From a bacterium (lineage in GTDB: Bacteria > Hydrothermota > Tepidihabitantia > Tepidihabitantales > Tepidihabitantaceae): DNA of 51,129 bases. The stretch lies in NCBI GenBank assembly GCA_046485285.1, contig JAWOHE010000010.1, positions 1 through 51,129 on the forward strand. The letters run 5' to 3'. Of this stretch, positions 437-18,658 are shown piece by piece. The notes under the pieces were generated by a model that saw nothing but the letters and a program-made list of their open reading frames with translations, searched no databases and was not told where the DNA came from. Position 1 is the stretch's first letter; each line of letters starts with the position of its first letter. The translations under genes and the position numbers were made by a program.

Positions 437-1900
437 TCAGGGAGTGTTGCTGAGCTTCTCGACCAGCGTGCCGTCCTGCCGCCGCAGGCTGACCTCGAGC
501 GCCGCCCGGCCGAGCAGGTGGCTGGCGCAGGCGAAGCAGGGGTCGTAAGCCCGGAAGAACATCTCGACCGTGTTGAGCAGGCCGTCGTCCGCCTTGCCCT
601 TGCGCACCAGCTTCTTCGCCGCGTCGCGCACGCTCATGCAGATCGGGCCCATGTTGTTGGTCGAGGCGACGATCAGGTTGACCTTCTTGACCAACCGGTC
701 GTCGTCCAGCCAGTAGTGGTGGAAGAGCGTGCCGCGCGCCGCCTCGACCACCCCGATGCCCTCTTCCTGCATCGCGTAGTTCATGTTACGGATGTCGGTG
801 CCGGTGATGCTCTTGTCGGACGCGAGCTGGAGCGCTAACTCCGAGACATAGAGCAGTTCGACCAGCCGCGCCCAGTGGAACGCCAGCGTCGAGTTGACCG
901 GTTTCGTCTTGAAGCTGGCGTAGAGCTTCTCGTAGTGCTCCTGCGCCTTCGGCGTCGCCATCCCGTCCGCGGCGTTGAGCCGCCCCAGTGGCCCGACCCG
1001 GTAGATGCCCGACTCCGGCCCGTCGGTCAGGCCCTGGTAGCCGACAGCCTTGAGGTACGGGATCTTGACGTAGTTCCACTCGAGCACGTGCTCGGCGATG
1101 TGCTGGAGGTAGTCCCGCGCCGGGAACTTGAGGAACTCACTACCGTCCGGCGCGGTCACCCGGACCTGCCCGTCGTAGAAGTTGACGCGGTTGTTCTCGT
1201 CCACCAGGCCCATGTTGTAGGTCGCCAGCCCGAGCGCCGGGTCGGTGACCAGTTTCATGTAGTCCCGGTTGCCGAGCACCAGGTCCGCGAAGAGCCTAAG
1301 CGTGAACTCCGCGAACCCGATACAGGACCGGGCCATCCGCTCGATTTCCGCCCGCTCTTCCTCGCTCAGCGTCTTGGTCTGCCCGCCGGGCACGCCTGAG
1401 ACCGGGTGGGTCGGCTTGCCGCCGAGCAGCTCGGTTATCTTCTGCCCGTAGGCCCGGTGCTTGATGACCTCCTTCGCGACGTCGAGGCCGACTTTCTCGA
1501 TGACGCCGAGGATGTTGCGCTTCTCTTTCGGCGCGTCCGGCCCGACGACGAAGTCCGGCCCGCCGAGGAAGTAGAAGTGCAGGATGTGGTCGTAGATGAT
1601 GTAGCCGGCGTAGATCAGGTCGCGGAGCTTACGCGCGGTCGGCGTCGGCTCGACCCCGAACGCCATGTCGAGTGCCTTGGTCGAGGCGTAGTGGTGCGCC
1701 ACCGGGCAGACCCCGCAGATCCGGCTGGTGAGCTGGGGCATGTCCTCGGCCTTGCGGCCGACGCAGAACCGCTCGAACCCGCGCAGTTCCGGTACCTGCA
1801 GGTAGGCGTTGGCGACATCGCCCTTGTCGTCGAGGAAAATCTCGATCTTGCCGTGGCCCTCGAGCCGGGTAATCGGGTCAATCGTGATGCGCCTGCTCAT
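437..1900 (-). CDS. mvhA: [NiFe]-hydrogenase large subunit, MvhA-type (group 3c)
   Basis: True start MSRRITIDPITRLEGH at 1900 (TAATG overlap with mvhG). L1 motif RICGVC, L2 motif DPCFACASH plus C-terminal extension; hdr/mvhD context. Confidence 0.93.
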   Translation of the reverse strand: MSRRITIDPITRLEGHGKIEIFLDDKGDVANAYLQVPELRGFERFCVGRKAEDMPQLTSRICGVCPVAHHYASTKALDMAFGVEPTPTARKLRDLIYAGYIIYDHILHFYFLGGPDFVVGPDAPKEKRNILGVIEKVGLDVAKEVIKHRAYGQKITELLGGKPTHPVSGVPGGQTKTLSEEERAEIERMARSCIGFAEFTLRLFADLVLGNRDYMKLVTDPALGLATYNMGLVDENNRVNFYDGQVRVTAPDGSEFLKFPARDYLQHIAEHVLEWNYVKIPYLKAVGYQGLTDGPESGIYRVGPLGRLNAADGMATPKAQEHYEKLYASFKTKPVNSTLAFHWARLVELLYVSELALQLASDKSITGTDIRNMNYAMQEEGIGVVEAARGTLFHHYWLDDDRLVKKVNLIVASTNNMGPICMSVRDAAKKLVRKGKADDGLLNTVEMFFRAYDPCFACASHLLGRAALEVSLRRQDGTLVEKLSNTP

Positions 1901-2931
1901 TACTTCCCCTTTCCCGCTTCCGCGCCCTGGACATTGGCCTCCTGGCCTTCGCCTGCCGCCTTCCTCTTCCGGTTGATGGTCGCGCTGGCCAGCCCGTACA
2001 TGTAGAACGTCCCGACCGGGTCCTTGACCTTCGCCAGCAGTTTCCGGGTCTCCTCGTCGGTCATCATGCTCTCGTCGTCCACCCGAAGGATGGCCGCCAG
2101 CGCGGATATCATCTTCGCGCCCTGGTCCTTCACCTCCGGCGTCGGGCCCAGACAGCCGGTGCAGGGCCAGTTGCCGTTGATGCAGCGCGACTCGCAGCCG
2201 GACCGCGTCGCCGGGCCCATGCAGATCAGGCCCTGAGCGAGGAAACACTCCTCCGGATTCGCGGCAATCTCCCACGGCCGCTTGATGTCCGGCATCTTCT
2301 TGGGCAGGGTGCTGTTCCGGGGGCAGGTGTCGCAGAGCGCCTTGACCGGCGCGAGCACCGTGCCCTTCTCCGGGAGCCTGCCCGCGACAACCGCCTCGAA
2401 CGCGGCGAGGATGACCGGCACCGGCGGAGGGCAGCCGGGCAGGTAGTAGTCGACGTCCACCACCCGGTCGAGCGGGTAGACCCCGTCGTAGAACTTCGGC
2501 AGGGTCAGCTCGCCCTCGGGCGCCGCGAAGCTCGTCCGCGGCTCGGTGCCTTTCGATTCGTCGAGCGAGGGCTCGTCGTGGTAGGCGGTCCTGAACACCT
2601 CGTCCCGGCTGTTGAGGTTGGCCAGCCCGGGAATACAGCCGTGGTGCGCGCAGGAGCCGAACGCGACCAGCGTCTTCGCCTTCCGGCGCAGCAGGTGCGC
2701 CCATTCCTCCTGCTCGGAGGTGCGCACCGAGCCATTGAACAGGCACAGGTCGAGGTGCTTGTCCGGCCAGGCCTCGACGTCCGCCTTCTTGGTATCCATC
2801 GCCACCGGCCAGAGCAGGATGTCGGCCGCGGCGACGATGTCAAGGATCTTCTCGTTGGTGTCGAGCATCGCGATTTCACAGCCGCCGCACGATGCCGCCC
2901 AGTAGAGCCCGAGCTTCAGCTTCTCCGCCAC
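1900..2931 (-). CDS. mvhG: [NiFe]-hydrogenase small subunit, MvhG-type
   Basis: SCGGC, FGSCA..GCIPGLAN, LPGCPP and CxxC...C..QG..CMGP.T..GC...C.GC motifs; RBS GGAGG. Confidence 0.93.
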   Translation of the reverse strand: MAEKLKLGLYWAASCGGCEIAMLDTNEKILDIVAAADILLWPVAMDTKKADVEAWPDKHLDLCLFNGSVRTSEQEEWAHLLRRKAKTLVAFGSCAHHGCIPGLANLNSRDEVFRTAYHDEPSLDESKGTEPRTSFAAPEGELTLPKFYDGVYPLDRVVDVDYYLPGCPPPVPVILAAFEAVVAGRLPEKGTVLAPVKALCDTCPRNSTLPKKMPDIKRPWEIAANPEECFLAQGLICMGPATRSGCESRCINGNWPCTGCLGPTPEVKDQGAKMISALAAILRVDDESMMTDEETRKLLAKVKDPVGTFYMYGLASATINRKRKAAGEGQEANVQGAEAGKGK

Positions 2932-2962
2932 TGCGCCTCCTTACCGGGTAAGTCTCTTCTTG

Positions 2963-3844
2963 TCATTCAATCAGACCCCGCGCCCGCAACGCCGGCCGCG
3001 GGTCAATCTTGCCGTAGTCGAGCGCGAGCTCGCCGGCGGGCATGCCGAGCGCGAGCCCGACGAGCTTCGGGAAGTAGAGAATCGGGATCGGCTTGAACTT
3101 CTTCTCGCGCGCCGCGATGTCGCTCTGGAGCGCGTCGATGTTGTAATGACAAAGCGGGCAGCTCGTTGTCATCACCTCCGCCCCGGCCTCGCGGGCGTTC
3201 TCGACCACCCGGCGCGAGCAGTTCTCGGCCACCTCGCGCCGGCTCACGACCAGGTAGCCGCCGCAGCACTTGGTCTTGAAGTCGAACGGCACCGGCTCGG
3301 CCCCGATTGCCGCCATCAGGTCGTCGAGCACGTGCGGGTCGGTCGCGTCGCCGAGCTCCATCACCGCCCGCGGCCGCGACATCAGGCAGCCGTAGTACGA
3401 CGCGACCCGGAGCCCGTCAAGCGACCGCCCGGCGCGGGCCTTGATTGCCTCCCAGCCGACGTCGTCCCTCAGCACCTCGAGATAGTGAACGACCCGCAGG
3501 CCGGGCCGGTACTCCTCGTCGATGAAGTCGAGCAGTCGCCGGCCGGTCCGCTCGTCCTTCTCGTCCTCGAGCGCGACCCGCGCCCGCTTGAGGACGTTGT
3601 AGCACGCCGCGCACAGTGTCACCAGCCGGTCGCCGAGCTGGCTCGCCCGGGCCAGATTGCGCACCGGGCCGAGCTGGGACGCGAGGTCGTCGGTGTTGGT
3701 GTTGTAGATCGCGCCACAGCAGGTCCAGGCCGGCATCTCGACCAGCTCGATATCGAGCTTCAGCGCGACCCTGCGCGCGACCTCGTCCAGCGACTTCGCC
3801 TTGGTGTGGAGGGTGCAACCCGGGTAATAGCTGAGCTGCTTCAC
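2963..3844 (-). CDS. hdrB: heterodisulfide reductase subunit B-like (CCG-domain protein), copy 1
   Basis: YYPGC...TCCG...CAAC and YYGC...KCCG...CPLC: two CCG domains. Confidence 0.9.
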   Translation of the reverse strand: MKQLSYYPGCTLHTKAKSLDEVARRVALKLDIELVEMPAWTCCGAIYNTNTDDLASQLGPVRNLARASQLGDRLVTLCAACYNVLKRARVALEDEKDERTGRRLLDFIDEEYRPGLRVVHYLEVLRDDVGWEAIKARAGRSLDGLRVASYYGCLMSRPRAVMELGDATDPHVLDDLMAAIGAEPVPFDFKTKCCGGYLVVSRREVAENCSRRVVENAREAGAEVMTTSCPLCHYNIDALQSDIAAREKKFKPIPILYFPKLVGLALGMPAGELALDYGKIDPRPALRARGLIE

Positions 3845-3847
3845 GCG

Positions 3848-4237
3848 CTACCCGGCGAATTTGCGGTAGGCGGCGATGAACGCCTGTTGCGGCACTTCCT
3901 CGAGCTCCTCCGGGATGGCGCTGTCCGGGTCGAACTCGCTGCGCTTGCCGCGCAGGAGTATCGCCCGGCAGGCCTCGGCGATCTTCGCGTAATCGACCCG
4001 GCGCGGACAGCGGGTGCCGCAGGTCAGGCAGCTCGCGCAGAGCCAGATGCCCCGCGAGTTGATGACCTGCTCGGGCAGACCGAGCTGCAGGAACAGCATC
4101 GCCTCGCGCGGCTTCGGGTCCATCTCGTCGGCGACCGGGCAGCCGCCGGTGCACTGGCCGCACTGGAAGCAGACCGCGATGTCCTCGCCGCTGAGTTCCT
4201 CGATCTGCCGGATGAGTCTGCGCGCGTTATCGTCCAC
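3848..4237 (-). CDS. hdrC: heterodisulfide reductase subunit C-like, copy 1
   Basis: CFQCGQCTGGCP and WLCASCLTCGTRCP. GTG start at 4237 chosen by analogy with the paralog at 17195-17596 and the upstream promoter. Confidence 0.88.
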   Translation of the reverse strand: MDDNARRLIRQIEELSGEDIAVCFQCGQCTGGCPVADEMDPKPREAMLFLQLGLPEQVINSRGIWLCASCLTCGTRCPRRVDYAKIAEACRAILLRGKRSEFDPDSAIPEELEEVPQQAFIAAYRKFAG

Positions 4238-4253
4238 AATAGTGAAGTCACAG

Positions 4254-4281
4254 AGGATAGAAACGGCCCCGGCCAAGTCAA
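4254..4281 (-). promoter_or_regulatory. sigma70-type promoter for hdrC-hdrB-mvhG-mvhA
   Basis: TTGACT-N16-TATCCT on the - strand. Confidence 0.6.
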
Positions 4282-4334
4282 GAAACGCCCGGCAGCGCTG
4301 CGGAGTGAAAGACAAGGCGACAGGCCCGGCCGGG

Positions 4335-7300
4335 CTAATCCAGCAACGCGACGATCTCGCGGCAGATATTCTCGCTGGTGAAGCCGCGGATGTCGATCGC
4401 CGAGCACCGGCAGTTGGCCGCGCAGGCACCGCAGCCCTTGCACAGCGCCTCGTTGACCACCGCCGCCCGCGTGCCGAAGGTCTCGTTGACGACCTTGACC
4501 TCAATCGCCCGGTAGGCGCAGAGCGTCTCACACATCCGGCAGGCGGTGCAGCGCTCGCGGTCGACGTGCGCGACCGTCGCCTCGGCATCAAGCGTGTCGC
4601 GGCTGAGAATCGTCGCCGCCCGGCCCGCCGCGGCCCGCGCCTGGGCCACCGCCTCGTCGATGAACTTCGGGAAGTGCGCCAGCCCGGCCATGAACACGCC
4701 CTCGGTCGCGAAGTCCACCGGCCGGAGCTTCATGTGCGCCTCGAGGAAGAAACCGTCCGCATTGAGCGGCACCTTGAGCATCATCGCCAGTTCCTTCGCA
4801 CCGGCTCTCGGCACGATGCCGGTGCTCAAGACCAAGAGGTCCGGCCGGAACCTGATGCTGCGGCCGAGCACCGGGTCGCGCGCCACCACGACCGGCCGGC
4901 CGTCCTCGACCGTGACCTCGGGCTTCTCGTCGGGGGTGAACCGGATGAAGACAACTCCCAGCTCGCGCGCCCGGCGGTAGTGCTCCTCGCGCAGGCCGTA
5001 AGTCCGGATGTCCCGGTAAAGCACGAAGACGTCGGTGCCCGGGTCGAGCTCCTTCAGCGCTACGGCGTTCTTGACCGCCTCGGCGCAGCAGATCCGCGAG
5101 CACCAGGGCCGCTCCGGCTCGCGCGACCCGACGCACTGGACCATCACCACGGAAGAGCAGGGACCATTGCAGATTGCAGGTTTCAGATTGCAGGTTTCAG
5201 AACCGGAAGAAGCGGACATTCTGCAGTCTGCATTCTGCAATTTGCATTCAGCAATCATCTTCTCCAGCTCACGCTGGGTAATGATCCGGTCGCTCTCGCC
5301 GTGATGGTACTCGGTTGGCTCGCGGTACTCGGCCCCGGTCGCGACAACGACCACGCCATGCTCATACTCCATCGGTTTGTCCGCCCCGCGGACGTGGAAA
5401 GTCGTCCGGTAGTTGCCGACGAATCCGTCGATGCGGTCGAGCGCCACGCTCGAGTGGACAGTGATGCGCGGGTGCTGCCGCACCTGCTCGATGATCGCCC
5501 TGAGCCGGGCGCGGACATCGTCGCCCTCGGCGGTGGTGAATATCGCAAGCGCCTGGCCGCCCAGTTCGGCCTCGCGCTCGAGCAGGCAGACGTCGAAACC
5601 CTCGTCGGCGATTGCCAGCGCGGCGGTCAGCCCGGCGATGCCGCCGCCCAGTACCAACGCCGCCTTCTTGACCGGCAGCTCAACCCTGGGCAGCGGAACC
5701 TGGCGCACGACCCGGGCAATCGCACCCCGGACGAGCTCCTTGGCCTTGGCCGTCGCCAGTTCGGGCTCCTTCATGTGCACCCACGAGCACTGGTCCCGAA
5801 TATTGGCCATCGCGAAGAGATGCGGGTTCAAACCCGCCTCGGCCAGCGTCGCCTGGAACAGCGGCTCGTGCGTCCGGGGCGAGCACGAAGCGACCATCAC
5901 CCGGTTGAGCCTCTGCTCCCGGATGATGTCCTTGAGCCGCTCCTGGGTATCGCCCGAGCAGGAGTAGAGGTTCTCGTCGGCGTAGACGACAAACGGCAGC
6001 GTCTTGGCGTACTCGACCACCGCCGGCACATTGACCACGCCGCCGATGTTGATGCCGCAGTGGCAGATGAACGCCCCGACCCGCGGCGGCTCGCCCGCGA
6101 CATTGTGCTCGGGCGGCTGCTCCTCGACAATCGTCTCGCTGCCGCGGGCCGCGGCGAGCACTGACTCGGCGTTCGCCGCCGCGCCCGATGCCCCGGTCAC
6201 CGTCTCAGGAATGGCCATCGGCGCCTGGAAGCTGCCGGCGACGCTGATGCCCTCGCGCGACGTGCCGACCGGGTTCCAGTTGTCGCCGGCCGCGAAGCCG
6301 TACCGGTCGAGCTCAATGTCGAGCCGCCGGCCCAGCTCGACCAGCTCCGGCGGCGGCACCAGCCCGCAGGACAGCACCACCATGTCGAACCGCTCGGCGC
6401 CCGCGCCCGCGTCGCCGGCGTAGCGGACAATGAGATCGCGCGTCGCCGGGTCCTCCCTGATTTCCGGCACCCGCGCCCGGACCAGCCGAACCCCGTACTG
6501 CCGCTCCGCCCGCTCGACGTAGCGGTCAAAATCCTTGCCGTACGAACGCATGTCCATGTAGAATATCGTCGGCTCGATTGCGCTGACGTGCTCCCTGGCG
6601 ATGACCGCTTCCTTGACCGCATACATGCAGCACATCGCCGAGCAGTAGCCCTTCTCGACCGACTCGTCGCGTGACCCGACGCACTGCAGCCAGGCGATTC
6701 GCTCCGGCGCCTTGCCGTCGCCGGGCCGCTGGATGTGCCCGGAATACGGCCCCGATGCCGAGAGGATGCGCTCGAACTCGAGGCTGGTGACGACGTTCGG
6801 GTAACGGCCGTGGCCGTACTCGCGCCGCAGGTCGGTCGGCGCAACCTGCGAGCCCGCCGCGACGACGACCGCGCCGACGCGGACGGCCAGCTCCTCGTCC
6901 TGCTGGGAGTAGTCGATGGCGCCGGCCTTGCAGTTCTTGGCGCAGGCGCCGCACTTGTCGCGGGTCAGTTTCAGGCAGTGCTTCGCATCGATCATTGGCG
7001 CGTTCGGCACCGCCTGGGCGTAGAGCCGATAGATTGCCCGACGCTCGGCCAGCCCGCCCTCGAAGTCGTTCGGCAGCTTGACCGGGCACTTCGCGAGGCA
7101 GTCGCCGCAACCTGTGCACTTGTCGAGGTCGACGTAGCGGGCATGTCGCTTGAGCCGTACGGTGAAGTCACCCGCCTGCCCCTCGATGCCGAGGACCTCG
7201 GTCAGCGTCAGGAGTTCGATGTTGTGGTGCCGCGCCGCCGCGACCAACTTCGGCGACAGGATGCACATCGAGCAGTCGTTGGTCGGGAAAGTCTTGTCGA

Positions 7301-7463
7301 GCATCGCCATCACGCCGCCGATGCCCGCCTGCTTCTCAACGAGGTAGACCTTGTAGCCCGAGTCGGCGAGGTCAAGCGCGGTCTGGACGCCGCCGATGCC
7401 GCCGCCGACGACCAGCACCGCGCCGGATAGCGGCGACGTCGCCGCCTGGCCCTTGTCGCTCAC
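4335..7463 (-). CDS. hdrA: HdrA-like flavoprotein with two FAD/HdrA modules (~1042 aa)
   Basis: GGGIGG, DKTFPTNDCSMCILSPK, ferredoxin insert, QCVGSR..CSAMCC, CHCG.NI, GGGIAG, FLEAH.KLRPVD, C-terminal ferredoxin. GTG start at 7463 overlaps the upstream TGA. Confidence 0.9.
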   Translation of the reverse strand: MSDKGQAATSPLSGAVLVVGGGIGGVQTALDLADSGYKVYLVEKQAGIGGVMAMLDKTFPTNDCSMCILSPKLVAAARHHNIELLTLTEVLGIEGQAGDFTVRLKRHARYVDLDKCTGCGDCLAKCPVKLPNDFEGGLAERRAIYRLYAQAVPNAPMIDAKHCLKLTRDKCGACAKNCKAGAIDYSQQDEELAVRVGAVVVAAGSQVAPTDLRREYGHGRYPNVVTSLEFERILSASGPYSGHIQRPGDGKAPERIAWLQCVGSRDESVEKGYCSAMCCMYAVKEAVIAREHVSAIEPTIFYMDMRSYGKDFDRYVERAERQYGVRLVRARVPEIREDPATRDLIVRYAGDAGAGAERFDMVVLSCGLVPPPELVELGRRLDIELDRYGFAAGDNWNPVGTSREGISVAGSFQAPMAIPETVTGASGAAANAESVLAAARGSETIVEEQPPEHNVAGEPPRVGAFICHCGINIGGVVNVPAVVEYAKTLPFVVYADENLYSCSGDTQERLKDIIREQRLNRVMVASCSPRTHEPLFQATLAEAGLNPHLFAMANIRDQCSWVHMKEPELATAKAKELVRGAIARVVRQVPLPRVELPVKKAALVLGGGIAGLTAALAIADEGFDVCLLEREAELGGQALAIFTTAEGDDVRARLRAIIEQVRQHPRITVHSSVALDRIDGFVGNYRTTFHVRGADKPMEYEHGVVVVATGAEYREPTEYHHGESDRIITQRELEKMIAECKLQNADCRMSASSGSETCNLKPAICNGPCSSVVMVQCVGSREPERPWCSRICCAEAVKNAVALKELDPGTDVFVLYRDIRTYGLREEHYRRARELGVVFIRFTPDEKPEVTVEDGRPVVVARDPVLGRSIRFRPDLLVLSTGIVPRAGAKELAMMLKVPLNADGFFLEAHMKLRPVDFATEGVFMAGLAHFPKFIDEAVAQARAAAGRAATILSRDTLDAEATVAHVDRERCTACRMCETLCAYRAIEVKVVNETFGTRAAVVNEALCKGCGACAANCRCSAIDIRGFTSENICREIVALLD
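5145..5267. repeat. heptamer inverted-repeat element lying in frame within hdrA
   Basis: (ATTGCAG/GTTTCAG)n arm and (TCTGCAN)n arm; near-identical copy at 23606-23714. Confidence 0.85.
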
Positions 7464-8155
7464 TGATCCGCCTTCTCCAGCGCCGCCAGGCTTTCCGGGT
7501 AAGAGTGGCCATCCTCGGCCGCAAGCTCCTTGATGGCGTTCATTATCTGGCTGATCTGCACGCCCTGCGGGCAGCGCGACAGGCAACGGTAGTGAGTCGC
7601 GCATATGTCCTTGAACTCGTCGGCCAGCGCCTCGTCGCGCAGGCCCATGTTGACGAGCCGGATGAACCGCCGCGGGTCCTTCGTCGGGTCGAAGAGCTGC
7701 TCCGGGCAGACCGCGGTGCAGGAACCGCAGGTGAAACAGCGCCCGACCTCGGGCAGCTCCGCCATCACCCGGCGCTTGAACTCACGGTCGAACTCCGCCG
7801 CGTCGGTGATGTCTGCCCGCGTCGCCTCGAGTCGCCTGGTCTCCTCCGCAAGCCGGGCGACCGCATCCGCGACCGCGCCGATGTTCACGCCCTGCGGGCA
7901 GCGCTTGAGGCAGGTCGAGTGGTAGGAACACATCCAGACGAACTCCGACCGGTAGACCTCGTCCCTCATCCCGAGTATCGCCATCCGGATGATGCGCCGC
8001 GGGTTGTACTTCTCGTCGAGCCTGCGCACCGGGCAGGAGGCCGAACATGAACCGCAGGCCAGGCAGTGCATGAAGTCCCGGTTGCCCATCTTCTCGGCGA
8101 TACGGAACTTGAACTCGCCGTCGAGTTGGCTGACCAGGACTTCCCGCTCCGCCAT
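7460..8155 (-). CDS. tandem-duplicated HdrC-like Fe-S protein
   Basis: Two HdrC-like halves, each with CxxCxxCxxxCP followed by CxxHxxCxxxCP. Confidence 0.85.
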   Translation of the reverse strand: MAEREVLVSQLDGEFKFRIAEKMGNRDFMHCLACGSCSASCPVRRLDEKYNPRRIIRMAILGMRDEVYRSEFVWMCSYHSTCLKRCPQGVNIGAVADAVARLAEETRRLEATRADITDAAEFDREFKRRVMAELPEVGRCFTCGSCTAVCPEQLFDPTKDPRRFIRLVNMGLRDEALADEFKDICATHYRCLSRCPQGVQISQIMNAIKELAAEDGHSYPESLAALEKADQ

Positions 8156-9270
8156 TACTCGCTCTCGCCGACCGCCTGGAACTCGTCCTCGCGGAACGCC
8201 ACCAGCGGCAGAGGTTCTTCGAGGCTCCGGCCCGAGACATAGTCGAACTCGGCCTGGACGTTGCGAGACACCTTCCTGAACAGCGACAGGAGCCCGACAC
8301 CGGCCGGGCAGGAATCTTCGCAGATGCCACAGGCAACGCAGGAAGCCATCATGTGGTTCATCCGCGTCAGGTGGAACAACAGCGTCTCCGACGGCATCCG
8401 GGTCAGCCCCTTGCGCTTCGCGGTCCGGACGTGCTCATCCAGCCCGCGCTTGAAGGTGTCCGAGTCAAAGAAGCACTCGTGGCAGTAGCAGACCGGGCAG
8501 ACCCGCATGCAGTTGTGGCAGTTGATGCAGTCGGCGAAGTAGCTGACGAGCTTCTCCGGACCCATCATCGCCTTGTCCAGCTCCTCGATGCGTGCCGCCG
8601 CCTTCTTCAACCGCCTGCCGGCAAGCTCCTTCAGGTACTCCCGGCGCGCCGCCGGCTCTTCACCCGCCGTCTCGACGCCCTCAAGCAGCGCCCGGCCCTT
8701 GTCGGTAGCGGCCTCCAGCCACAGCTCCTTGTCCGGGTTCAGTCCTAGGAATCCGATGGCGACATCGAATGCCGGCGGGCTGGAGAACTCACACACCTGG
8801 CAGGCGGTGCGCAAGTTCGGGCTGTCATAGTAGTCCCGCTGCCTGCGGATGTGGTCGTTATCAAACTCTTCGCCTTCTGTCCGGGTTTCGCGAAACCCGG
8901 CCGCCTTGTAGGTGCCCGGGCAGTCGATACCCACCAGCACCACCGCCTCGGCGTCGACCTGCCGCAGCTTGATGAGCTCGACCACCGCCCGCAACTCGCA
9001 GGGCCGCAGCAAGAGCCCGACCTTACCTGCATCGCCCGCCTGCTTGGCGATGTCGTGGACCACCGACGCGGCGTTGACCGCCATCGCCGGCAGCAGTGGC
9101 GCGGCATCGGCCAGCTTCGCCGGGTCGCTGACCAACGCCAGCGTCGCGGCGCCGGACTTCGCCATCACCGGCACCAGCATCGCCGACAGCCGCCCCCCCT
9201 CCAACCAGCCGGCAAACAGCTCGCGCAGCGCCTGCGAGGGATTCTTCGCCTTCACCTTGAGCATGCCCAT
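8155..9270 (-). CDS. FdhB/FrhB-family Fe-S protein with C-terminal 2[4Fe-4S] region
   Basis: RPCELRA, GIDCPG, ACQVC, CINCHNCMRVCPVCYCHEC and CVACGICEDSCP; adjacent to mvhD. Confidence 0.8.
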   Translation of the reverse strand: MGMLKVKAKNPSQALRELFAGWLEGGRLSAMLVPVMAKSGAATLALVSDPAKLADAAPLLPAMAVNAASVVHDIAKQAGDAGKVGLLLRPCELRAVVELIKLRQVDAEAVVLVGIDCPGTYKAAGFRETRTEGEEFDNDHIRRQRDYYDSPNLRTACQVCEFSSPPAFDVAIGFLGLNPDKELWLEAATDKGRALLEGVETAGEEPAARREYLKELAGRRLKKAAARIEELDKAMMGPEKLVSYFADCINCHNCMRVCPVCYCHECFFDSDTFKRGLDEHVRTAKRKGLTRMPSETLLFHLTRMNHMMASCVACGICEDSCPAGVGLLSLFRKVSRNVQAEFDYVSGRSLEEPLPLVAFREDEFQAVGESE

Positions 9271-9277
9271 CGCTGCC

Positions 9278-9700
9278 TCACACGTCCCACTGCTCGCGGA
9301 AGGGACTCGGCCCCTTCTGCTTCAGCGCGTCGGTCATCGCGGTCATCGTGTCCGCGAACTTGCGACCCTCGGCCGCGGAAATCCAGCGCAGCCAGACCCG
9401 GTCCTCGTCGAGCCCGACCGAGCGCAGGATGCTCTTGAACGCCACCATCCGCCGCCGCGCCTTGTAGTTGCCCGAGACGTAGTGGCAGTCGCCCGGATGG
9501 CAACCGCCCATGAACACCCCGTCCGCGCCCTCGAGCAGCGCGCGCAGAAGGTAGACCGAATCCACCGAACCCGAGCACATAACCCGGATCGGGCGCATGT
9601 TCGGCGGGTACTGCATCCGCGACGTGCCGGCGAGGTCCGCGCCTGCGTAGGTGCACCAGTTACATAGAAAGCCGACTATCCTGGGCTCGAAATCAGCCAT
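9278..9700 (-). CDS. mvhD: MvhD [2Fe-2S] subunit
   Basis: FLCNWCTYAGAD, RVMCSG, GCHPGDCHY, WISAAEG; RBS AGGAGG. Confidence 0.93.
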   Translation of the reverse strand: MADFEPRIVGFLCNWCTYAGADLAGTSRMQYPPNMRPIRVMCSGSVDSVYLLRALLEGADGVFMGGCHPGDCHYVSGNYKARRRMVAFKSILRSVGLDEDRVWLRWISAAEGRKFADTMTAMTDALKQKGPSPFREQWDV

Positions 9701-9748
9701 TCAGCCTCCTGCGTCTCGGATTGGTCCGATCGGTCTGTTCCCCGGTCC

Positions 9749-12700
9749 TCACAGCGCCGCGTCCACCATCGAAATCATCTGTCGCGCCCGGAACCCGCCC
9801 AACTCGATGGCGCTCGACGGGCAGGCCATCGCGCAGGCCCCGCAGCCCTGGCACAACACCGGCATCACCGCCGACTTGCCGGTCTCCGGGTTGACCTTCA
9901 CCGCCTCGTACTGGCAGATTTCCTCGCAGACCCCGCAGCCGACGCACCAGCGCTCGTTGACCTTCGCCACCACCGCCTCGGTCGCCAGTTCCTCGTGGCT
10001 GATGACCGAGCAGGCCCGGGCCGCGGCCGCGTAGGCCATCGCGATCGTCTCCGGGATCCGACGCGGGCTGTGGGCCATCCCGGCCATGAACACGCCCCGG
10101 GTCGTGAAATCCACCGGCCGGAGCTTGACGTGCGCCTCGAGGAAGAACCCGTCCTGGTTCATCGGCACCTTCAGCAACCGGGCGATCTTCTCGTTGTCCT
10201 GCGCCGGCACGACCCCGGCCGACAGCACCAGCGCGTCGGCGTCGATCCCGAGCCGGACCCCGAGCACCGGGTCGCGCACCGCGACATGCAGCCGGCCACC
10301 TAGCTCGGTGACCTCGGGCAGGTGCTGCTCGTCGAACCGGATGAACACCACCCCGGCCTCGCGCGCCGCGTGGTACAGCCCTTCCTTGAAGCCGTAGGTG
10401 CGCATGTCCCGGTAGAGAATGTAAACATTCCGCTTCGGGTCGAGCTGCTTCAGCCGGAGCGCGTTCTTCACCGCCTCGGTGCAGCAGATCCGCGAGCACC
10501 AGGGATGGGCGTCCTCGCGCGACCCGACGCACTGGATCATCACCACATCCTTGAGCCCGGCGAGCTTCTCGGGCGAGTCAACCACCAGCCGCTCGAGCCC
10601 GGTCTGGGTCATCACCCCGCTGCGCTCGCCGCAGCCGAACTCGGTCGGCCGGTATTCCTCCGCCCCGGTCGCGACGATAAACACGCCGTGCTCGAGCTCG
10701 AACCGCCTGTCGCGCTGTAGCACGGTTGTCCGGTAGTTGCCGACGTAGCCGGTGACGTCGGTGATCTCCGCACCGGTGAAGACCCTGACCCCGGGCGTCG
10801 CCTGGAGCCGGCCCTCCAGCTCCGCCAGCAGCTCGCTGATGCTCTCGCCGGTCACCGCGTAGCGCAGGTTGCGCAGGTGTCCGCCGAGCCGGTCCCGCTT
10901 CTCGACCAGGAAGGTCTCGAACCCCTGCTCGGCGATGGCGAGCGCAGCGGTCATACCCGCCAGCCCGCCGCCGATGACCAGCGCCTTCTGGACAATCGCC
11001 TGCGGCCGCGAGTAGAGTGGCCGGAGCAGGCGGGCGTTGGCAACCGCCATCCGGACCAGCTCGTTTGACTTCCGCGTCGCCGACTCCGGGTCCTTCATGT
11101 GCACCCAGGAACACTGGTCGCGGATGTTGGCCATCGTGAACAGGTGCGGGTTCAGACCCGCCTCGGCCAGCGTCTCCTGGAACAGCGGCTCGTGGGTCCG
11201 CGGTGTACAGGAAGCGACGATGACCCGATTCAGGCCGTGCTCCCGGATTGTCTTGGATATCTTCTCCTGGGTATCCTGCGAACAGGTGAAGAGATTCTCC
11301 TCGGCATAGACTACGCCCGGCAGGGTCTTCGCGTACTCGACGACGCTCGGCACCTTGACAACCCCGCCGATGTTGATGCCGCAGTTGCAGACGAAGACCC
11401 CGATGCGCGCCTCCTCCAGGCTGACGTCACGCTCGGGCGGGTACTCCTTCTTCGTGACCAGCGTGTTGCGCGCCGGCGCCAGCAGCGACCCGACCACCGC
11501 CGCGACCCCGGTCGCCTCGGTGACCGTCTCGGGAATGTCCTTGGGCTCCGACAGCGCCCCGCACACGAACACGCCCTCCCGGGCGGTGAGCATCGGCACG
11601 TGCGGATCGGTCGGCACGAACCCCTGGGCATCAACCTCGAGCCCGACCCGGCGGGCGAGCTCGGCCGCCCGCGGGTCCGCGGTCAGTGCGGTCGAGAGCA
11701 CGACCATATCGTAGCGCTCCTCGCGCAGGACGCCATCCTCGTCCTCGAAGCTGATGAACAGGTCCTCGGTCGCCTGGTCGCGCCGGAGCGCGCTCACCTT
11801 GCTCCGGCGGTAGACAATGCCGTACTCGTTCTGCGCCCGCTGGTAGTAGGCCTCGAAGTCCTTGCCGAAACAGCGCATGTCCATGAAGTAGATCTGGCAG
11901 TCCAGTTCGCCGCCGCAATGCTCGCGGGCGATGACCGCCTCCTTGGTCGCGTACATGCAGCAGACCGAGGAACAGTAGAAATGTTCCTGGTTGCGGGAGC
12001 CGACGCACTGGATCCAGGCCACCCGCTTCGGCTGCTTCCCGTCCGATGGCCGGCGGACGTGGCCCTCGTACGGCCCGGACGCGGACAGGATGCGCTCGAA
12101 CTCGAGGCTGGTGACGACGTTGGGATAGCGGCCGTAGCCGTAGCCGTGGTCGCCGGTCGGCTTGTACTCCTTGAACCCGCTGGCGAGCACGACCGCCCCG
12201 ATTTCGACTTCCTGCTCCACCTCGGTCATCGAATGGTCGATCGCTTCGGCCTCGCAGGCCGCGACGCACTGGAAGCACTCCGAGCAGATGCCGCAGTTCA
12301 AGCAGCGCTGCGCCTCGGCCACCGCGGTTTCCTCGTCGAACCCGAGCTCGATCTCCTCGTAACCCCGGAGCCGGTTCTCCAGCGGGATGGCCCGCTCCCC
12401 GGCACGCTCGCGGGGGACAACCCCGCACCGGTACCCGGCCGAGTCTTCCTTCGTTGCCGGCTCGGGCTTCCGCTCCGGCCGGCCCGCGGCCAGGTCCTCG
12501 CCCCGGATGAGCCGGTCGATCGATATCGCCGCCTCGTGCCCGTGGGCCACCGCCTCGATGACCGAGGCCGGCCCGGACACCATGTCCCCGCCCGCGAACA
12601 CGCCCGGCACGTTCGTCGCCAGCGTCACCGGGTCCGCCTTGAACGTCCCGCCCGGCCCGCGCTCGAACCCGTCGAAGCCGTCCGCCGCGACCGCGGCGCC

Positions 12701-14203
12701 GATCGCCAGGATGACTTCGTCGGCCGGCACCACCCGGTCCACACAGGAGTTGAACTCCGGGTTGAAGCGCTTGTTCTCGTCGAACACCCGGGTGCACTCG
12801 ATGACCCTGAGCCCGGTCACCCGGCCGTGCGGGCACTGGCCCTTCGGGCCAAACTCGCCGACAATCTTCTCCGGCCCCCAGGACGTCTCGAGCTTGACGC
12901 CCTCCGCCAGCGCCTCGCTGATTTCGTACTCGAACGCGGGCATCTCCTCCCGGCATTCGAGGCAGACCATCGTCACGTCCTCGGCCCCGCTGCGCCGGGC
13001 GGCCAGCGCGACGTCCACCGCGACATTGCCGCCGCCGATGACCACCACCCGCCTGCCCAGCTTCGGCGCCCGACCCTCGTTGACCTCGCGCAGGAAATCC
13101 AGCCCCAGCCGCACGCCCGGCAGGTCCATCCCCTCCAGCTTCAGCGTCCGGCTCGCCTGGCAGCCGAACCCGAGGAACGCCGCCTTGTACCCGTCCTTCA
13201 GCAGCGCGTCCAGCTCCTTGCGGTTCCGCACCGGGGACCCGGTCTTCAGTTCCACCCCGGTGCCGACGATGTCCGCGATTTCCCGCTCCAGCACCGCGGC
13301 CGGCAGCCGGTAGTCGGGGATACCGGTCCGCATCATCCCGCCCGGCTTCTCCGCGGCCTCGAACACCGTCACCTGGTAACCCTTCGCCCGCAGGTCGAGC
13401 GCGCAGGTCAGCCCGGCCGGCCCGGCCCCGACCACCGCGACCTTCTCCGGCCGCCCCGCCGCCGGCCCGGGAATGACCGGGTACTCCAGCTCGTGCTCCC
13501 GGACGTAGTCAGAAACGAACCGCTTCAGCGTCCGGATCGAGACCGGCGCCTCGTACTCCTTGCGGTTGCAGCTCTGCTCGCAGGGATGGTGACAGACCCG
13601 GCCGCTGACGCCCGGGAACGGCAGCCGCTCCCGCACCAGCTCGTAGGCTTCCTTGAACTTGCGCTGGGCGATCAGCGCGACGTAGCCCTGGGCATTGACC
13701 CCGGCCGGGCAAGCCAGCCGGCAGGGCGCGCGCCGGTCGTTCTTCTCGATCGTGAACGCGTTCGGAATCGCCTGCGGGAACAGCCGGTAGGTCGCCTTGC
13801 GCAGCGAGATGTCCTGGTTGTAGCTGTCCGGCACATCGACCGGGCAGACCTTGGCGCAGTCGCCGCAGCCGGTGCACTTGTCCAGGTCCACGAACCGCGG
13901 CTTGCGCCGGATCCGAGCCCGGAAGCTCCCCGGCTCGCCCTCGAGCCCGAGGAACTCCGAGTACATCAACAGCTCGATATTCGGGTGCCGGCCGGTCCCG
14001 ACCAGTTTCGGCGACAGGATACACATCGAGCAGTCGTTGGTCGGGAAGGTCTTGTCGAGCATCGACATTACGCCGCCGATGGACGGCTTCTCGTCGAGCA
14101 GGTAGACCTTGAACCCGGCGTCGGCCAGCTCCAGCGAACTCTGGATGCCGCCGATGCCCGAACCGATGACAAGGACCGCGCCGGTCGGTTGTTTCTCGCT
14201 CAT
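9749..14203 (-). CDS. hdrA: large HdrA (HdrL-type) with inserted GltD/NfnB-like NAD(P)H oxidoreductase module
   Basis: HdrA motifs interrupted by PCRLACPAG..GRVCHHPCE..C, GAGPAG, GIPDYRLP, GGGNVAVD, GGDMV.GP and EAQRCLNC. Confidence 0.9.
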   Translation of the reverse strand: MSEKQPTGAVLVIGSGIGGIQSSLELADAGFKVYLLDEKPSIGGVMSMLDKTFPTNDCSMCILSPKLVGTGRHPNIELLMYSEFLGLEGEPGSFRARIRRKPRFVDLDKCTGCGDCAKVCPVDVPDSYNQDISLRKATYRLFPQAIPNAFTIEKNDRRAPCRLACPAGVNAQGYVALIAQRKFKEAYELVRERLPFPGVSGRVCHHPCEQSCNRKEYEAPVSIRTLKRFVSDYVREHELEYPVIPGPAAGRPEKVAVVGAGPAGLTCALDLRAKGYQVTVFEAAEKPGGMMRTGIPDYRLPAAVLEREIADIVGTGVELKTGSPVRNRKELDALLKDGYKAAFLGFGCQASRTLKLEGMDLPGVRLGLDFLREVNEGRAPKLGRRVVVIGGGNVAVDVALAARRSGAEDVTMVCLECREEMPAFEYEISEALAEGVKLETSWGPEKIVGEFGPKGQCPHGRVTGLRVIECTRVFDENKRFNPEFNSCVDRVVPADEVILAIGAAVAADGFDGFERGPGGTFKADPVTLATNVPGVFAGGDMVSGPASVIEAVAHGHEAAISIDRLIRGEDLAAGRPERKPEPATKEDSAGYRCGVVPRERAGERAIPLENRLRGYEEIELGFDEETAVAEAQRCLNCGICSECFQCVAACEAEAIDHSMTEVEQEVEIGAVVLASGFKEYKPTGDHGYGYGRYPNVVTSLEFERILSASGPYEGHVRRPSDGKQPKRVAWIQCVGSRNQEHFYCSSVCCMYATKEAVIAREHCGGELDCQIYFMDMRCFGKDFEAYYQRAQNEYGIVYRRSKVSALRRDQATEDLFISFEDEDGVLREERYDMVVLSTALTADPRAAELARRVGLEVDAQGFVPTDPHVPMLTAREGVFVCGALSEPKDIPETVTEATGVAAVVGSLLAPARNTLVTKKEYPPERDVSLEEARIGVFVCNCGINIGGVVKVPSVVEYAKTLPGVVYAEENLFTCSQDTQEKISKTIREHGLNRVIVASCTPRTHEPLFQETLAEAGLNPHLFTMANIRDQCSWVHMKDPESATRKSNELVRMAVANARLLRPLYSRPQAIVQKALVIGGGLAGMTAALAIAEQGFETFLVEKRDRLGGHLRNLRYAVTGESISELLAELEGRLQATPGVRVFTGAEITDVTGYVGNYRTTVLQRDRRFELEHGVFIVATGAEEYRPTEFGCGERSGVMTQTGLERLVVDSPEKLAGLKDVVMIQCVGSREDAHPWCSRICCTEAVKNALRLKQLDPKRNVYILYRDMRTYGFKEGLYHAAREAGVVFIRFDEQHLPEVTELGGRLHVAVRDPVLGVRLGIDADALVLSAGVVPAQDNEKIARLLKVPMNQDGFFLEAHVKLRPVDFTTRGVFMAGMAHSPRRIPETIAMAYAAAARACSVISHEELATEAVVAKVNERWCVGCGVCEEICQYEAVKVNPETGKSAVMPVLCQGCGACAMACPSSAIELGGFRARQMISMVDAAL

Positions 14204-16341
14204 CCGACCGCCTCTTCCGTCATCTCATAGATGCTCTTCTTGCTGAAGTTACGGTGGCTCATCGCGCCCGACGGGCAGGCGACCGAGCAGGCCCCGCAGC
14301 CCTCACAGAGCGCGACATTGACCACCGCCACCCCGCGCCCGCTGTCCACCTTCACCGCGCCGTAGGCGCAGGTCTGCTCGCAGTTGCCGCACCCGACGCA
14401 GATGTCCTCGTCCACGCAGGCGGTCGTCGGGGCGTGGAAAATCTGCTCCTGCCCGAACATCGCCAGCACCTTCGCCGCCGCCGCGGAAGCCTGCGCAACC
14501 GTCTCGGGAATGTCCTTCGGCCCCTGCCCGCAACCCGCGAGAAAGAACCCGCCGGTCAGCGTCTCGACCGGCCGCAGCTTCGGGTGGGCCTCGGTCAGGA
14601 AACCATGGGCATCAACCTGCATCTTCAGCCGCTTCGCCAGCTCCACGCCATCCGGGTTCGCGATGACCGCGCTCGCCAGCACGACCAGGTCGGCCTCGAG
14701 CTCGACCTTGCGGCCCGCGAGCGTGTCCGAGGCCCAGACCACCACCTTGTCGCCCTGCCGGTACACCTTCGACACCTTGCCCCGCAGGTAGGTCGTGCCC
14801 TCGTCGGTCGCCCGCTGGTAGAACTCCTCGAAGCCCTTGCCCGGGGTGCGGACGTCGATGTAGCAGATGGTCGCCTCGCCGTCGTGGACCCGGTGCTTGT
14901 ACAGAATCGCCTGCTTGGCGGTGTACATGCAACAGATCTTCGAGCAATAGGGCATGCCGTGCTCGCGGTCCCGCGAGCCCGCGCACTGGATGAAAACCAC
15001 CTTCTTCGGCACCTTGCCGTCGCTCGGCCGCTTCACCTCGCCCTGGGTCGGGCCGGACGCGGACAGCAGCCGCTCGAAAGCCAGCCCGTCGATCACGTCC
15101 GGCACCCGGCCGATACCGTACGCGTTCATCCGCTCGTGGTCGAACAGCTCGTACCCGGTCGCGAGCACGATTGCACCGACCTCCTCCTCGACGAACTTCT
15201 CGGAATCATCGTAGCGGATTGCCTTGGTCGGGCAGACCTTCGCGCAGACCCCGCACTTCCCCCTGGTCAGGTAGATGCAGGCCTCGGCGTCAATCACCGG
15301 CCGGTTCGGCACCGCCTGGGGCAGTAAACGGTAGATCGCCCGGCGCTTGCCCAGCCCCCGCTCGAAATCGGACTCGACCCGGGCCGGACACTTCTCCATG
15401 CACAGCCCGCAGCCGGTGCAGGCGTCGAAATCCACGTAGCGCGGCTTCTGCCGGATGCGGATCTTGAAGTTGCCGATGTAGCCCGACACCTCCGCGATTT
15501 CAGAATAAGTGTAGAGCTTGATGTTCGGGTGCCGGCCGGTCTCGACCGTTCGCGGGGTCAGGATGCACTGCGAGCAATCCAGCGTCGGGAATGTCTCGGA
15601 GAGTTGGGCCATGTGCCCGCCGATGGACGGCTGCCTCTCGACCAGCACCACCTCGTACCCGGCGTTGGCGATGTCCAGCGCGGCCTGGATGCCGGCGATG
15701 CCCGCGCCGATGACCAGCGCCCGCTTCTTGACCGTCACGCCCACCGGCACCAGCGACTCGTCGTGGGTCGCCCGGGACAGCGCCAGCCGGACGATGTCTT
15801 CCGCCTTGTCGGTTGCCTCGTCCCGGTCCCGAGTGACCCACGCGCACTGCTCGCGGATGTTGGCGATTTCGGTCTGGTAGTAATTGAGCCCGGCCTCCTC
15901 GCCCGCCTTGCGGAATGTCGCCTCGTGCAGGGTCGGCGAACAGCAGGCCACCACCACCCGGTCCAGCCGGTCCGCCTTGATGCTGTCGCGGATTATCTGC
16001 TGGCCCGGGTCGGAGCAGCAATACTGGTAGTCACGCGCGACTGCCACGCCGGGCATCATCTTCGCCCGCTCGACCAGCTCCGGCACCTTTACCACCCCGG
16101 CGATGTTGATGCCGCAATGACACACGAACACTCCCACCCGCGGCTTGCGGGAAATCGGGGACATGACCGGTTTGTCGGACAAGGCGGATCGTGTACCCGC
16201 ATTTCGCGCGTGCACTGGCGTCCCGTCCGGCCTGGTCTCCTGCTGAGTTTCGACCGCCGGTCGGACCGGTTGCTCCGGGAGGCCTGCCACTTCCTGTTCC
16301 TCGCCCCTCGGCTTGCCGGTCCATTTGTCCCTTCCGCTCAC
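14200..16341 (-). CDS. hdrA: canonical-length HdrA (conserved part begins at ~16164)
   Basis: RVGVFVCHCGINI, GAGIAG, ETFPTLDCSQCIL, QCAGSRD..CSKICC, EAHPKLRPVET, C-terminal ferredoxin. GTG at 16341 overlaps the hdrB stop; alternative ATG at 16164. Confidence 0.9.
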   Translation of the reverse strand: MSGRDKWTGKPRGEEQEVAGLPEQPVRPAVETQQETRPDGTPVHARNAGTRSALSDKPVMSPISRKPRVGVFVCHCGINIAGVVKVPELVERAKMMPGVAVARDYQYCCSDPGQQIIRDSIKADRLDRVVVACCSPTLHEATFRKAGEEAGLNYYQTEIANIREQCAWVTRDRDEATDKAEDIVRLALSRATHDESLVPVGVTVKKRALVIGAGIAGIQAALDIANAGYEVVLVERQPSIGGHMAQLSETFPTLDCSQCILTPRTVETGRHPNIKLYTYSEIAEVSGYIGNFKIRIRQKPRYVDFDACTGCGLCMEKCPARVESDFERGLGKRRAIYRLLPQAVPNRPVIDAEACIYLTRGKCGVCAKVCPTKAIRYDDSEKFVEEEVGAIVLATGYELFDHERMNAYGIGRVPDVIDGLAFERLLSASGPTQGEVKRPSDGKVPKKVVFIQCAGSRDREHGMPYCSKICCMYTAKQAILYKHRVHDGEATICYIDVRTPGKGFEEFYQRATDEGTTYLRGKVSKVYRQGDKVVVWASDTLAGRKVELEADLVVLASAVIANPDGVELAKRLKMQVDAHGFLTEAHPKLRPVETLTGGFFLAGCGQGPKDIPETVAQASAAAAKVLAMFGQEQIFHAPTTACVDEDICVGCGNCEQTCAYGAVKVDSGRGVAVVNVALCEGCGACSVACPSGAMSHRNFSKKSIYEMTEEAVG

Positions 16342-18548: not shown

Positions 18549-18553
18549 ATCCA

Positions 18554-18582
18554 ATGTTAGTTATAACTCACGGTCGCGTCAA
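18554..18582 (-). promoter_or_regulatory. sigma70-type promoter, apparently leaderless transcript
   Basis: TTGACG-N17-TAACAT, then 5 nt to the ATG. Confidence 0.6.
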
Positions 18583-18658
18583 TCTGAAAATCGCTACAAT
18601 CGCTTGATAAATCAGCACTTCATTCACCTCCGAATTTCCCCCCTCCCCTATCCCCGGG

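Follow-up and report, generated by a model that had tools for sequence, protein, structure and literature searches.

A heptamer-array foldback in a variable loop of an HdrA-like flavoprotein gene, with a probable secondary copy in an intergenic region

The window analyzed here is a single bacterial contig of 51,129 nt (JAWOHE010000010.1 of assembly GCA_046485285.1, Hydrothermota), and all copy counts and open reading frame (ORF) scans reported below for the window cover this contig. Its minus strand carries a gene for a fused double-module HdrA-like flavoprotein (hdrA, 4335-7604) that is interrupted, in frame, by a palindrome built of two inverted arrays of 7-nt units, and a shortened version of the same segment lies between two other genes at 23603-23714. 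We lean towards the explanation that the hdrA element is a lineage-specific heptamer foldback in a hypervariable HdrA loop, that it belongs to a class of paired convergent heptamer arrays, and that the intergenic copy is secondary. Such paired arrays have already been described as a class, in Xanthomonas and Geobacter, and the hdrA case with its WTGCAGA unit is a new example.

The product of 4335-7604 matches the Pfam families Pyr_redox_2, FAD/NAD-binding, and several 4Fe-4S (Fer4) families, and its top PDB match is HdrA 5ODC_A (E=3.2e-188, in three stretches). The FAD/NAD-binding fold, the ferredoxin-type 4Fe-4S domains, and the homology to a solved HdrA that mark this class are therefore all present. 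In the database, the gene is called from 7463 (1042 aa; P0003, 100% match). Between LEK and VVMVQC, this protein reads MIAECKLQNADCRMSASSGSETCNLKPAICNGPCSS, a stretch of 36 residues with five Cys (residues 783-818, nt 5151-5258, minus strand). At the equivalent "empty" site, the paralogous HdrA (9749-14203) has 14 codons, LVVDSPEKLAGLKD (10547-10588, minus strand), followed by GTG GTG ATG as in hdrA. Insert-free relatives, like the paralog, have loops of 14 residues; the hdrA loop is thus 22 residues longer, and it lies in the second HdrA module between the helix ending in ELEK and the strand SVVMxQCVGSR. A first-pass annotation of this DNA had reported the 36- and 14-residue stretches, the five added Cys, and a palindrome that sits in frame; translation bears out both lengths and the Cys count, and the reading frame is continuous through 5151-5258.

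Local alignment and blastn delimit the segment common to hdrA and the intergenic copy to 5142-5267 (minus strand), and a codon view of this segment shows the heptamer palindrome together with native hdrA codons at both ends (LEKM at 5256-5267 and S-V-V at 5142-5150, minus strand). Read on the plus strand, the left arm (5166-5203) consists of five TTGCAGA-type heptamers, (A/G)TTGCAG or GTTTCAG, and contains a perfect 14-nt tandem duplication, and the right arm (5220-5256) consists of five TCTGCAN-type heptamers complementary to the left arm. The 16-nt spacer between them (5204-5219, plus strand) is the loop region of the predicted hairpin. Tandem Repeats Finder recovers both arms, with period 7 at 5166-5201 (5.1 copies, ATTGCAG) and 5220-5239 (TCTGCAG) and period 14 at 5170-5201 (2.3 copies, 100% matches) and 5217-5256; it also reports a row in the intergenic copy at 23667-23699. 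Both copies contain arrays of at least three 7-nt units arranged head to tail, and in both the opposite-strand arrays stand close together in the fixed relative orientation (NTGCAGN)n...(NCTGCAN)n. The GC content is 0.49 in the hdrA copy and 0.53 in the intergenic copy, compared to 0.69 for the window.

The hairpin that the first-pass annotation had proposed from the inverted 7-mer arms is supported both by these repeat rows and by folding. As single-stranded DNA, the hdrA copy forms a long bulged hairpin (z=-3.8 for the plus strand and -4.5 for the minus strand, with 0/200 shuffles as good), and as RNA it folds with a z of approximately -4. The fold of the intergenic copy is weaker (z=-2.2; 6-7/200 shuffles as good). 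We considered whether heptamers without stop codons in all six frames are special and rejected the idea, as 8264 of the 16384 heptamers share this property; it does permit in-frame tolerance.

The pattern TGCANNNTGCANNNTGCA locates TGCA-core heptamer arrays at three places in the window, with 11 matches versus 0.07 expected: the two copies and a solo array at 17845-17884 (plus strand; Tandem Repeats Finder row 17854-17880). This third array is TCTGCAN-like, has no complementary arm nearby, and resembles the intergenic copy (blastn E=1e-4). It lies in frame in an ORF (17673-18554, minus strand) with an N-terminal HTH_31 domain, where it reads ERIADCKLQSADGKL within a low-complexity C-terminal half. 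An HTH_31 paralog at 40257-40934 is uninformative for the array, its homology to this ORF being confined to the N-terminal HTH domain.

The site that hosts the element is a hypervariable loop. We collected 119 homologs besides the window's own protein, 104 of which could be parsed for loop length. The anchor-to-anchor distance was at most 49 in 68 of them, 50-59 in 8, and at least 60 in 28, while that of the window protein is 68. A different insert, KGSRVQGVKGSSARTLGPSDPGTLEPS, occupies the loop of P0004, which at 85% identity over module 2 is the nearest of these homologs. P0005 and P0006, the two nearest without an insert (82-83% identical), have short loops and are empty sites of the kind for which a search among orthologs had been suggested. 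A large group of WOR-3-like proteins carries an insert of approximately 19 residues, KGSRDKGTKG...LDPSIPRSLDPSSL, in the same loop, and its carriers (P0004, P0013, P0016, P0017, P0020, P0022-P0024, P0027, P0028, P0040, P0043, P0052, P0060, and P0061) are interleaved on the tree with short-loop relatives. Each half of this insert is compatible with the reverse complement of the other, which points to an octamer-type DNA palindrome.

In a peptide-level palindrome test, P0028 scored 37 against 18.2 for shuffled peptides (z=7.0, 0/200), and high scores were also obtained for P0017 (z=4.6), P0086 (z=4.5), and P0052 (z=4.4), with 0-1/200 shuffles as good in the P0017 and P0028 examples. Many other long inserts appear compatible with DNA palindromes, as judged from the peptides and not from ortholog DNA. 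As a negative test, this approach was rejected, because the known palindrome of the window scores z=0.1. Loops at the same site in other lineages, such as SNLQSTIYNLHS (P0109), SGNLRSPISNLQS (P0036), SGNRQSPLAIRQLQS (P0031-P0035), and ATCNLQLATCN (P0062), look by eye like translated heptamer arrays. In a FastTree phylogeny built from 105 module-2 sequences after exclusion of the loop columns, at least 22 changes between long and short loops are needed; shuffled labels need 27.6 on average (range 22-32), and 9 of 1000 shuffles need 22 or fewer. The loops therefore turn over very rapidly, unless the tree has poor resolution at that depth. Of the 104 parsed homolog loops, 102 contain no Cys. Because the TGC in each TGCA core encodes them, the five Cys of the window protein appear to be by-products of the repeat unit, without an Fe-S role.

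The intergenic copy (23603-23714, plus strand; found by local alignment, blastn, and Tandem Repeats Finder) has the same orientation as the hdrA copy. It aligns in two blocks, 5142-5169 with 23603-23630 and 5184-5267 with 23631-23714, in which 99 of 112 aligned bases are identical. The local score between the copies is 141, versus a maximum of 27 in 300 shuffles (blastn E=2e-27). A single 14-nt gap (5170-5183) separates the blocks and corresponds to one unit pair of the left arm that is missing from the intergenic copy, which is laid out as a three-unit left arm (23627-23650), a spacer (23651-23666), and a five-unit right arm (23667-23703). A recurrence with one 14-nt difference had already been noted at 23606-23714; it is real, and the shared segment begins three bases earlier. 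In the hdrA frame, the intergenic copy reads LEKMIAECRLQNADCRFSTSHGSETCN and is frameshifted after ...GSETCN. Within 22800-24400, blastn found no resemblance to hdrA beyond 23603-23714.

The ends of the shared segment bear on the direction of copying. Beyond the palindrome, the similarity takes in CTG GAG AAG ATG (LEKM) at one end and TCC GTG GTG (SVV) at the other. Insert-free homologs read ...ELE(x)(M/R/L)(I/V)A... and ...SVVMIQCVGSR, so that LE and SVV are native to HdrA, and the paralog spells VV-M identically, with GTG GTG ATG at the equivalent place. The earlier observation that the intergenic copy includes hdrA flanks (VV and LEKM) is therefore confirmed, and the homologs identify these flanks as native. 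Because the shared ends are native HdrA codons and the 14-nt loss frameshifts the intergenic copy, we infer that hdrA, or an allele of it, was the source of this copy and not the reverse, and that the copy then lost a unit; the loss would have occurred in the intergenic copy because hdrA could not tolerate it. Differences between the copies are concentrated in the spacer (5/16 positions versus 8/96 elsewhere; Fisher p=0.02). Among the first 27 codons, seven of the nine nucleotide differences are nonsynonymous, so that the peptide shows no sign of purifying selection.

The intergenic copy sits between a Kelch-protein region and lemA (coding sequence 23782-24333; LemA Pfam match E=1.7e-61). The first-pass annotation had placed it between two divergent promoters. 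One promoter-like site, TTGACA-16-TATCCT, was found for lemA at 23732-23759 (plus strand) by a promoter scan and begins 18 nt past the end of the copy, but no minus-strand promoter passed the scan. If the lemA prediction is right, the copy lies upstream of the promoter and outside the lemA transcript. On the other side, the Kelch-repeat ORF (21232-23175, minus strand; domains from residue 225) is overlapped in another frame by a 301-aa ORF (22587-23492) with no Pfam match. A frameshift or a misplaced start could account for this overlap, and it bears on the position at which the intergenic region upstream of the copy starts.

In the explanation that we favor, the element is a 5'-(WTGCAGA)n-spacer-(TCTGCAW)n-3' foldback in the loop of the second HdrA module. 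Its repeat DNA would grow and shrink by slippage, its arms may arise or persist through hairpin- or recombination-driven processes, and the whole is predicted to be translated as a low-complexity loop. The element would survive in hdrA because the loop tolerates insertions, the units are stop free in the frame that is used, and the net length keeps the frame. The copy at 23.6 kb would then be a secondary, noncoding, ectopic copy of the hdrA segment: repair- or recombination-type copying may have run past the palindrome and taken along native codons from both flanks (approximately 12 nt from one and at least 9 nt from the other), and slippage could afterwards have removed one 14-nt unit from the copy, which probably has no function. 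The case would illustrate concretely how an enzyme of core energy metabolism can gain 20-odd residues from selfish or slippage-prone repeat DNA without being destroyed, and the HdrA loop may be a natural permissive site that is useful for tagging or engineering. There is also a consequence for annotation, as such arrays yield spurious peptides of the AECRMQN, LQIADCR, and NLQSAIC types and inflated Cys counts.

Arrays of the same unit occur in other genomes. We scanned reference genomes with the pattern TCTGCANTCTGCANTCTGCA, i.e., at least three TCTGCAN units, and obtained at least 127 loci, whereas by our arithmetic approximately 17 would be expected by chance in 596 Gb on both strands. Among those listed are loci from Acidobacteriota, Chloroflexota (Oscillochloris, Roseiflexaceae, and Anaerolineae), Planctomycetota, Verrucomicrobiota and Lentisphaerae, Gemmatimonadota, Bacillota, Bacteroidota (including metagenome-assembled genomes [MAGs] of Prevotella and Alistipes), Proteobacteria, one cyanobacterium (Moorena), one WOR-3 MAG (L090), and several others; at least six of those listed come from Oscillochloris sp. 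ZM17-4. No near-identical copy of the hdrA element was found among the 127 genome loci listed, for which blastn gave array matches of 24-37 nt at most; the genome to which the window belongs is therefore not represented among these listed loci. Defining a complementary arm as at least 12/14 matches within 150 nt, we found the window orientation, 5'-(NTGCAGA)n...(TCTGCAN)n-3', at 47 of the 127 listed loci, the opposite orientation alone at none, both at one, and no partner at 79. Two of the 47 are artefacts (L056, an N-run, and L105, an unrelated hairpin). The palindromes at these loci have arms of 13-57 nt and spacers of 0-99 nt, and their units, perfect on the outside, become degenerate towards the center.

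Some of these arrays are also read in frame. Requiring an open frame of at least 150 aa that spans the array and continues for at least 40 aa in both directions, we found such frames at 42 of the 127 listed loci. A Pfam match (cutoff E of 1e-5) was present in 17 of the 42, and in 8 the domains with a match border the array or extend across it: MetH in a Prevotella MAG (L007), MurJ (L018), a cytidylyltransferase (L040), PSD1 (L045), an SdhA/NadB-like flavoprotein (L050), Pyr_redox_2 (L059), PSCyt2 (L080), and a glycosyltransferase (L100). Several in-frame cases show both arms in the peptide; for example, L050 reads IADCRLQIAD-wsepqi-NLQSAIYNLQS. The three-unit cases among the in-frame loci could be chance coding sequence. 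L003, L007, L018, L050, L059, L080, and L084, with the array at a position near 600, or 300 in short loci, have arrays in frame in conserved proteins of unrelated phyla, including a penicillin-binding protein (PBP) and PriA.

Two further loci deserve mention. L090, from the WOR-3 MAG, has a TCTGCAN array in frame (L090:283-427) just before a C-terminal domain (...VLLDASGRKVMTLTPGENDV...); it was rejected as a copy of the element, being a generic array in that position. Over 55 nt, this C-terminal domain shares 84% identity with the 3' end of ORF 29046-30488 of the window (window 29093-29147), a similarity that we think reflects a common C-terminal sorting-type domain. L006, from Oscillochloris sp. 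ZM17-4, has a compound arrangement at 531-831 in which four direct units of approximately 65-70 nt follow in a row, each with a TTGCAGA array, then TTGTTGA units and a unique tail, and a single inverted TCTGCAA array closes the series.

Open-access literature searches found nothing on the literal heptamer arrays or on their peptides, but comparable systems have been described, and the likenesses and differences given here hold for the parts of the cited reports that we draw on. Rehm et al. (2015, PMC4692102) state that heptamers are the overrepresented repeat size in bacteria and that detailed literature was then lacking, and they report 70 and 75 convergent opposite-strand pairs of GGGAATC heptamer arrays in two Xanthomonas genomes. 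Like the hdrA element, the Xanthomonas GGGAATC and Nostoc GGGGAYT repeats are tandem heptamers, often in convergent opposite-strand pairs capable of forming a stem-loop; their arrays run from few to many units at many sites per genome, and the mechanism is unexplained (PMC4692102). The units differ, however, as those of Xanthomonas and Nostoc are G-rich and quadruplex forming, and these repeats are underrepresented in coding regions, whereas the hdrA palindrome lies in frame inside a conserved enzyme (PMC4692102). A gene-to-intergenic copy such as that seen for the hdrA element is not described for them in the parts of that report considered here (PMC4692102).

In Geobacter metallireducens, Aklujkar et al. 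(2009, PMC2700814) described paired opposite-strand octa- and heptanucleotide tandem arrays with variable spacing, termed "global regulator binding sites" of classes 1-3, together with 49 heptanucleotide elements within and between genes, GGACCGG x4 elements, and insertion sequence (IS) elements at fixed distances from paired arrays. Compared by description and not base by base, these arrays share with the hdrA element the opposite-strand paired sites, the three to five tandem units, the variable spacing, and the presence of heptamers in both genic and intergenic positions. Their units differ from WTGCAGA, regulator binding there is a proposal, and no IS association like theirs was seen in the window (PMC2700814). 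Borg elements (PMC9879509) likewise have fast-evolving short tandem repeats within ORFs that add low-complexity or disordered regions, although their repeats are direct with unit lengths that are multiples of three, and the hdrA units are 7 nt long and form an inverted pair. TAACTGA heptamers of Beggiatoaceae and cyanobacteria (PMC4679880) resemble WTGCAGA in forming arrays in distant bacteria by an unexplained mechanism. In the account consulted, they are nearly all direct, intergenic, located upstream of start codons, and stop containing, with one inverted pair reported (PMC4679880).

The first-pass annotation had proposed a small mobile palindrome analogous to Rickettsia palindromic elements (RPEs). 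More broadly, the hdrA and intergenic copies could both be insertions of a nonautonomous element resembling a miniature inverted-repeat transposable element (MITE), a REPIN, or an RPE, with many copies in the genome and moved in trans, for example by a hairpin-recognizing single-strand transposase that leaves no target duplication. We consider this unlikely. The presence of two copies 18 kb apart with sharp similarity ends fits an element of this kind, as do the foreign-looking GC content of the hdrA copy and the palindromic architecture, and the strict arm orientation across the listed loci (47:0) resembles defined transposon ends. Against this, the shared ends are native hdrA codons. Blastn and repeat searches found no third full copy within the 51-kb window, and the listed loci gave only the short array matches described above. 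Neither transposases (including the Y1 transposase family) nor integrases nor reverse transcriptases were found by Pfam among the 62 window ORFs scanned (29 + 33). No direct repeat flanks 23603-23714, where target duplications had been proposed as a check, and flank matches at the 47 related palindromes are at chance level (2-nt matches at 3/47, 3-nt at 1/47, and 4-nt at 0/47). Blastn of the element against plasmid and phage collections gave no match. No other protein with the same insert was found in the libraries searched: a word search of insert residues 781-822 against proteins of 598-1906 aa scored one candidate, the window's own protein, and phmmer with the 44-residue insert against 1.84 billion representatives gave no close match. 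Its four weak matches were rejected, three being ORFs of AECRMQN-type repeats and one an unrelated saposin-like protein.

The element can also be compared with known families of mobile palindromes. REP/REPIN-RAYT systems consist of high-copy, imperfect palindromes of 20-40 nt with a conserved 5' tetranucleotide and an associated RAYT (Y1 transposase) gene. They have a single REP stem, and the hdrA element is instead built of heptamer arrays. MITEs are expected to have a target-site duplication, which was not found here. RPEs are known in-frame palindromic insertions in genes, with 44 insertions in one genome (review PMC10969869), and in this respect they lend some plausibility to a mobile origin: like the hdrA element, they are palindromes of approximately 100-150 bp in frame in conserved genes that give a peptide loop compatible with the fold. 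They differ in forming multicopy families with a conserved peptide and no tandem heptamers, while the hdrA element has two copies in the window, one of them noncoding and with host-codon ends (PMC10969869). A palindrome of RPE size is indeed in frame inside a conserved gene here, but a multicopy family in many unrelated genes was not seen, and similarity to a described RPE family is unlikely given the heptamer makeup. The Geobacter IS elements at fixed distances from paired arrays (PMC2700814) would also fit a mobile origin. Overall, a mobile element analogous to RPEs found no support and mobility is unproven; what the window appears to contain is an insertion of a repeat class in a permissive loop and one ectopic, decaying copy with host codons.

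A functional nucleic acid seems still less probable. The hairpin could be a processing or stability site or a translational pause in hdrA mRNA, and upstream of lemA it could tune divergent promoters as a cruciform or as a protein-binding array. Its strong fold and the better conservation of the arms than of the spacer would suit such a role, as would the position of the intergenic copy 18 nt upstream of a promoter-like site, and comparable arrays have been proposed as regulator binding sites (PMC2700814) or are mostly transcribed (PMC4692102). However, the element has no Rfam match. The gathering scan of the window returned the end of the small-subunit (SSU) rRNA gene as its sole match, and the best hits of permissive scans of both copies, mir-654 (E=0.11) and sR43 (E=0.53), are at chance level and were rejected as identities. 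The intergenic copy folds poorly after the unit loss and would lie outside the lemA transcript, and the closest HdrA relatives, which lack the element or have a different one, indicate that hdrA does not need it. It is very improbable that the loop is an adaptive protein feature that binds metal or an extra Fe-S cluster or contacts a partner in the Hdr complex. Five Cys have been added to an Fe-S flavoprotein and the frame is maintained, but the Cys spacing follows the 7-nt TGCA periodicity and not a cluster-binding motif, nearly all homolog loops lack Cys, other lineages have Cys-free inserts at the site, and most of the nucleotide differences between the two copies within the first 27 codons are nonsynonymous. 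We give least credence to an assembly artefact, in which the assembler would have created the 23.6-kb copy as a chimeric insertion. The window is a metagenome-type contig, yet the copies differ at 13/112 positions and by a 14-nt indel, unique sequence stands on both sides of the intergenic copy, and assemblers break at repeats and do not insert diverged 109-nt copies.

Several points nevertheless weigh against a slippage-prone foldback with a secondary copy. The copying mechanism is one that we infer, and the 51 kb in view is a part of the genome, so that a multicopy family elsewhere in it is possible. The strict 47:0 orientation and the occurrence of the same unit in many phyla among the listed loci are unlike plain slippage and hint at specific machinery or a binding factor. 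Between the two copies, the spacer has diverged more than the arms and flanks (5/16 versus 8/96 positions differ), which could reflect constraint on the arms or homogenization of the units. The fine branching of the FastTree phylogeny may be unreliable. In addition, the peptide-level palindrome test is insensitive to bulged arms, as its score for the window's own insert illustrates, and its positives among homologs are indirect. WTGCAGA foldbacks could be an undescribed, cross-phylum, oriented class whose generation or spread depends on a conserved sequence-specific process instead of plain slippage, and they would repeatedly write loops into conserved enzymes (HdrA, MurJ, MetH, PBP, and SdhA-like proteins). 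The HdrA module-2 loop would then be a recurrent landing and turnover site (at least 22 changes among 105 sequences), and the hdrA-to-intergenic copy would be a snapshot of seeding with host codons. We regard this as a speculative and rather unlikely proposal. The cross-phylum unit, the constant arm orientation, and the in-frame cases among the listed loci would, if true genome-wide, imply an unexplained repeat-generating or repeat-binding process.

The neighborhood of hdrA comprises hdrB, hdrC, mvhD, and [NiFe]-hydrogenase genes. Two hdr-like gene sets adjoin at 437-17596 and encode a [NiFe]-hydrogenase large subunit, HdrB/C-like CCG and Fer4 proteins, an MvhD/FlpD homolog (9278-9700), and HdrA-like proteins of 1089, 1484, and 713 aa. 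The second hdr-like operon, including the 1484-aa paralog, spans 9749-17596, and this 1484-aa form has a GltD/dihydropyrimidine-dehydrogenase-like insertion (Fer4_20 and a third Pyr_redox_2 stretch). The DnaE encoded in the window is nearest to proteins named candidate division WOR-3 (71-84% identity). The 3' end of a bacterial SSU rRNA gene lies at 50969-51129 (minus strand; Rfam RF00177, 152.6 bits), truncated by the end of the contig.

Tandem arrays with other units also occur in the window. An ORF at 18604-19365 (plus strand, no Pfam match) contains approximately 17-24 tandem 12-nt units in frame at 18606-18900 (GTTACTCCCGGG-like; also periods 24 and 36). A second 12-nt tandem array (CCCCGGGGACCG-like) occupies 35508-35723 in the ORF at 35170-35916 (plus strand, no Pfam match) and forms a 76-nt inverted pair, 35551-35626 and 35636-35711, that is 71% complementary and constitutes a GC-rich analogue of the heptamer foldback.

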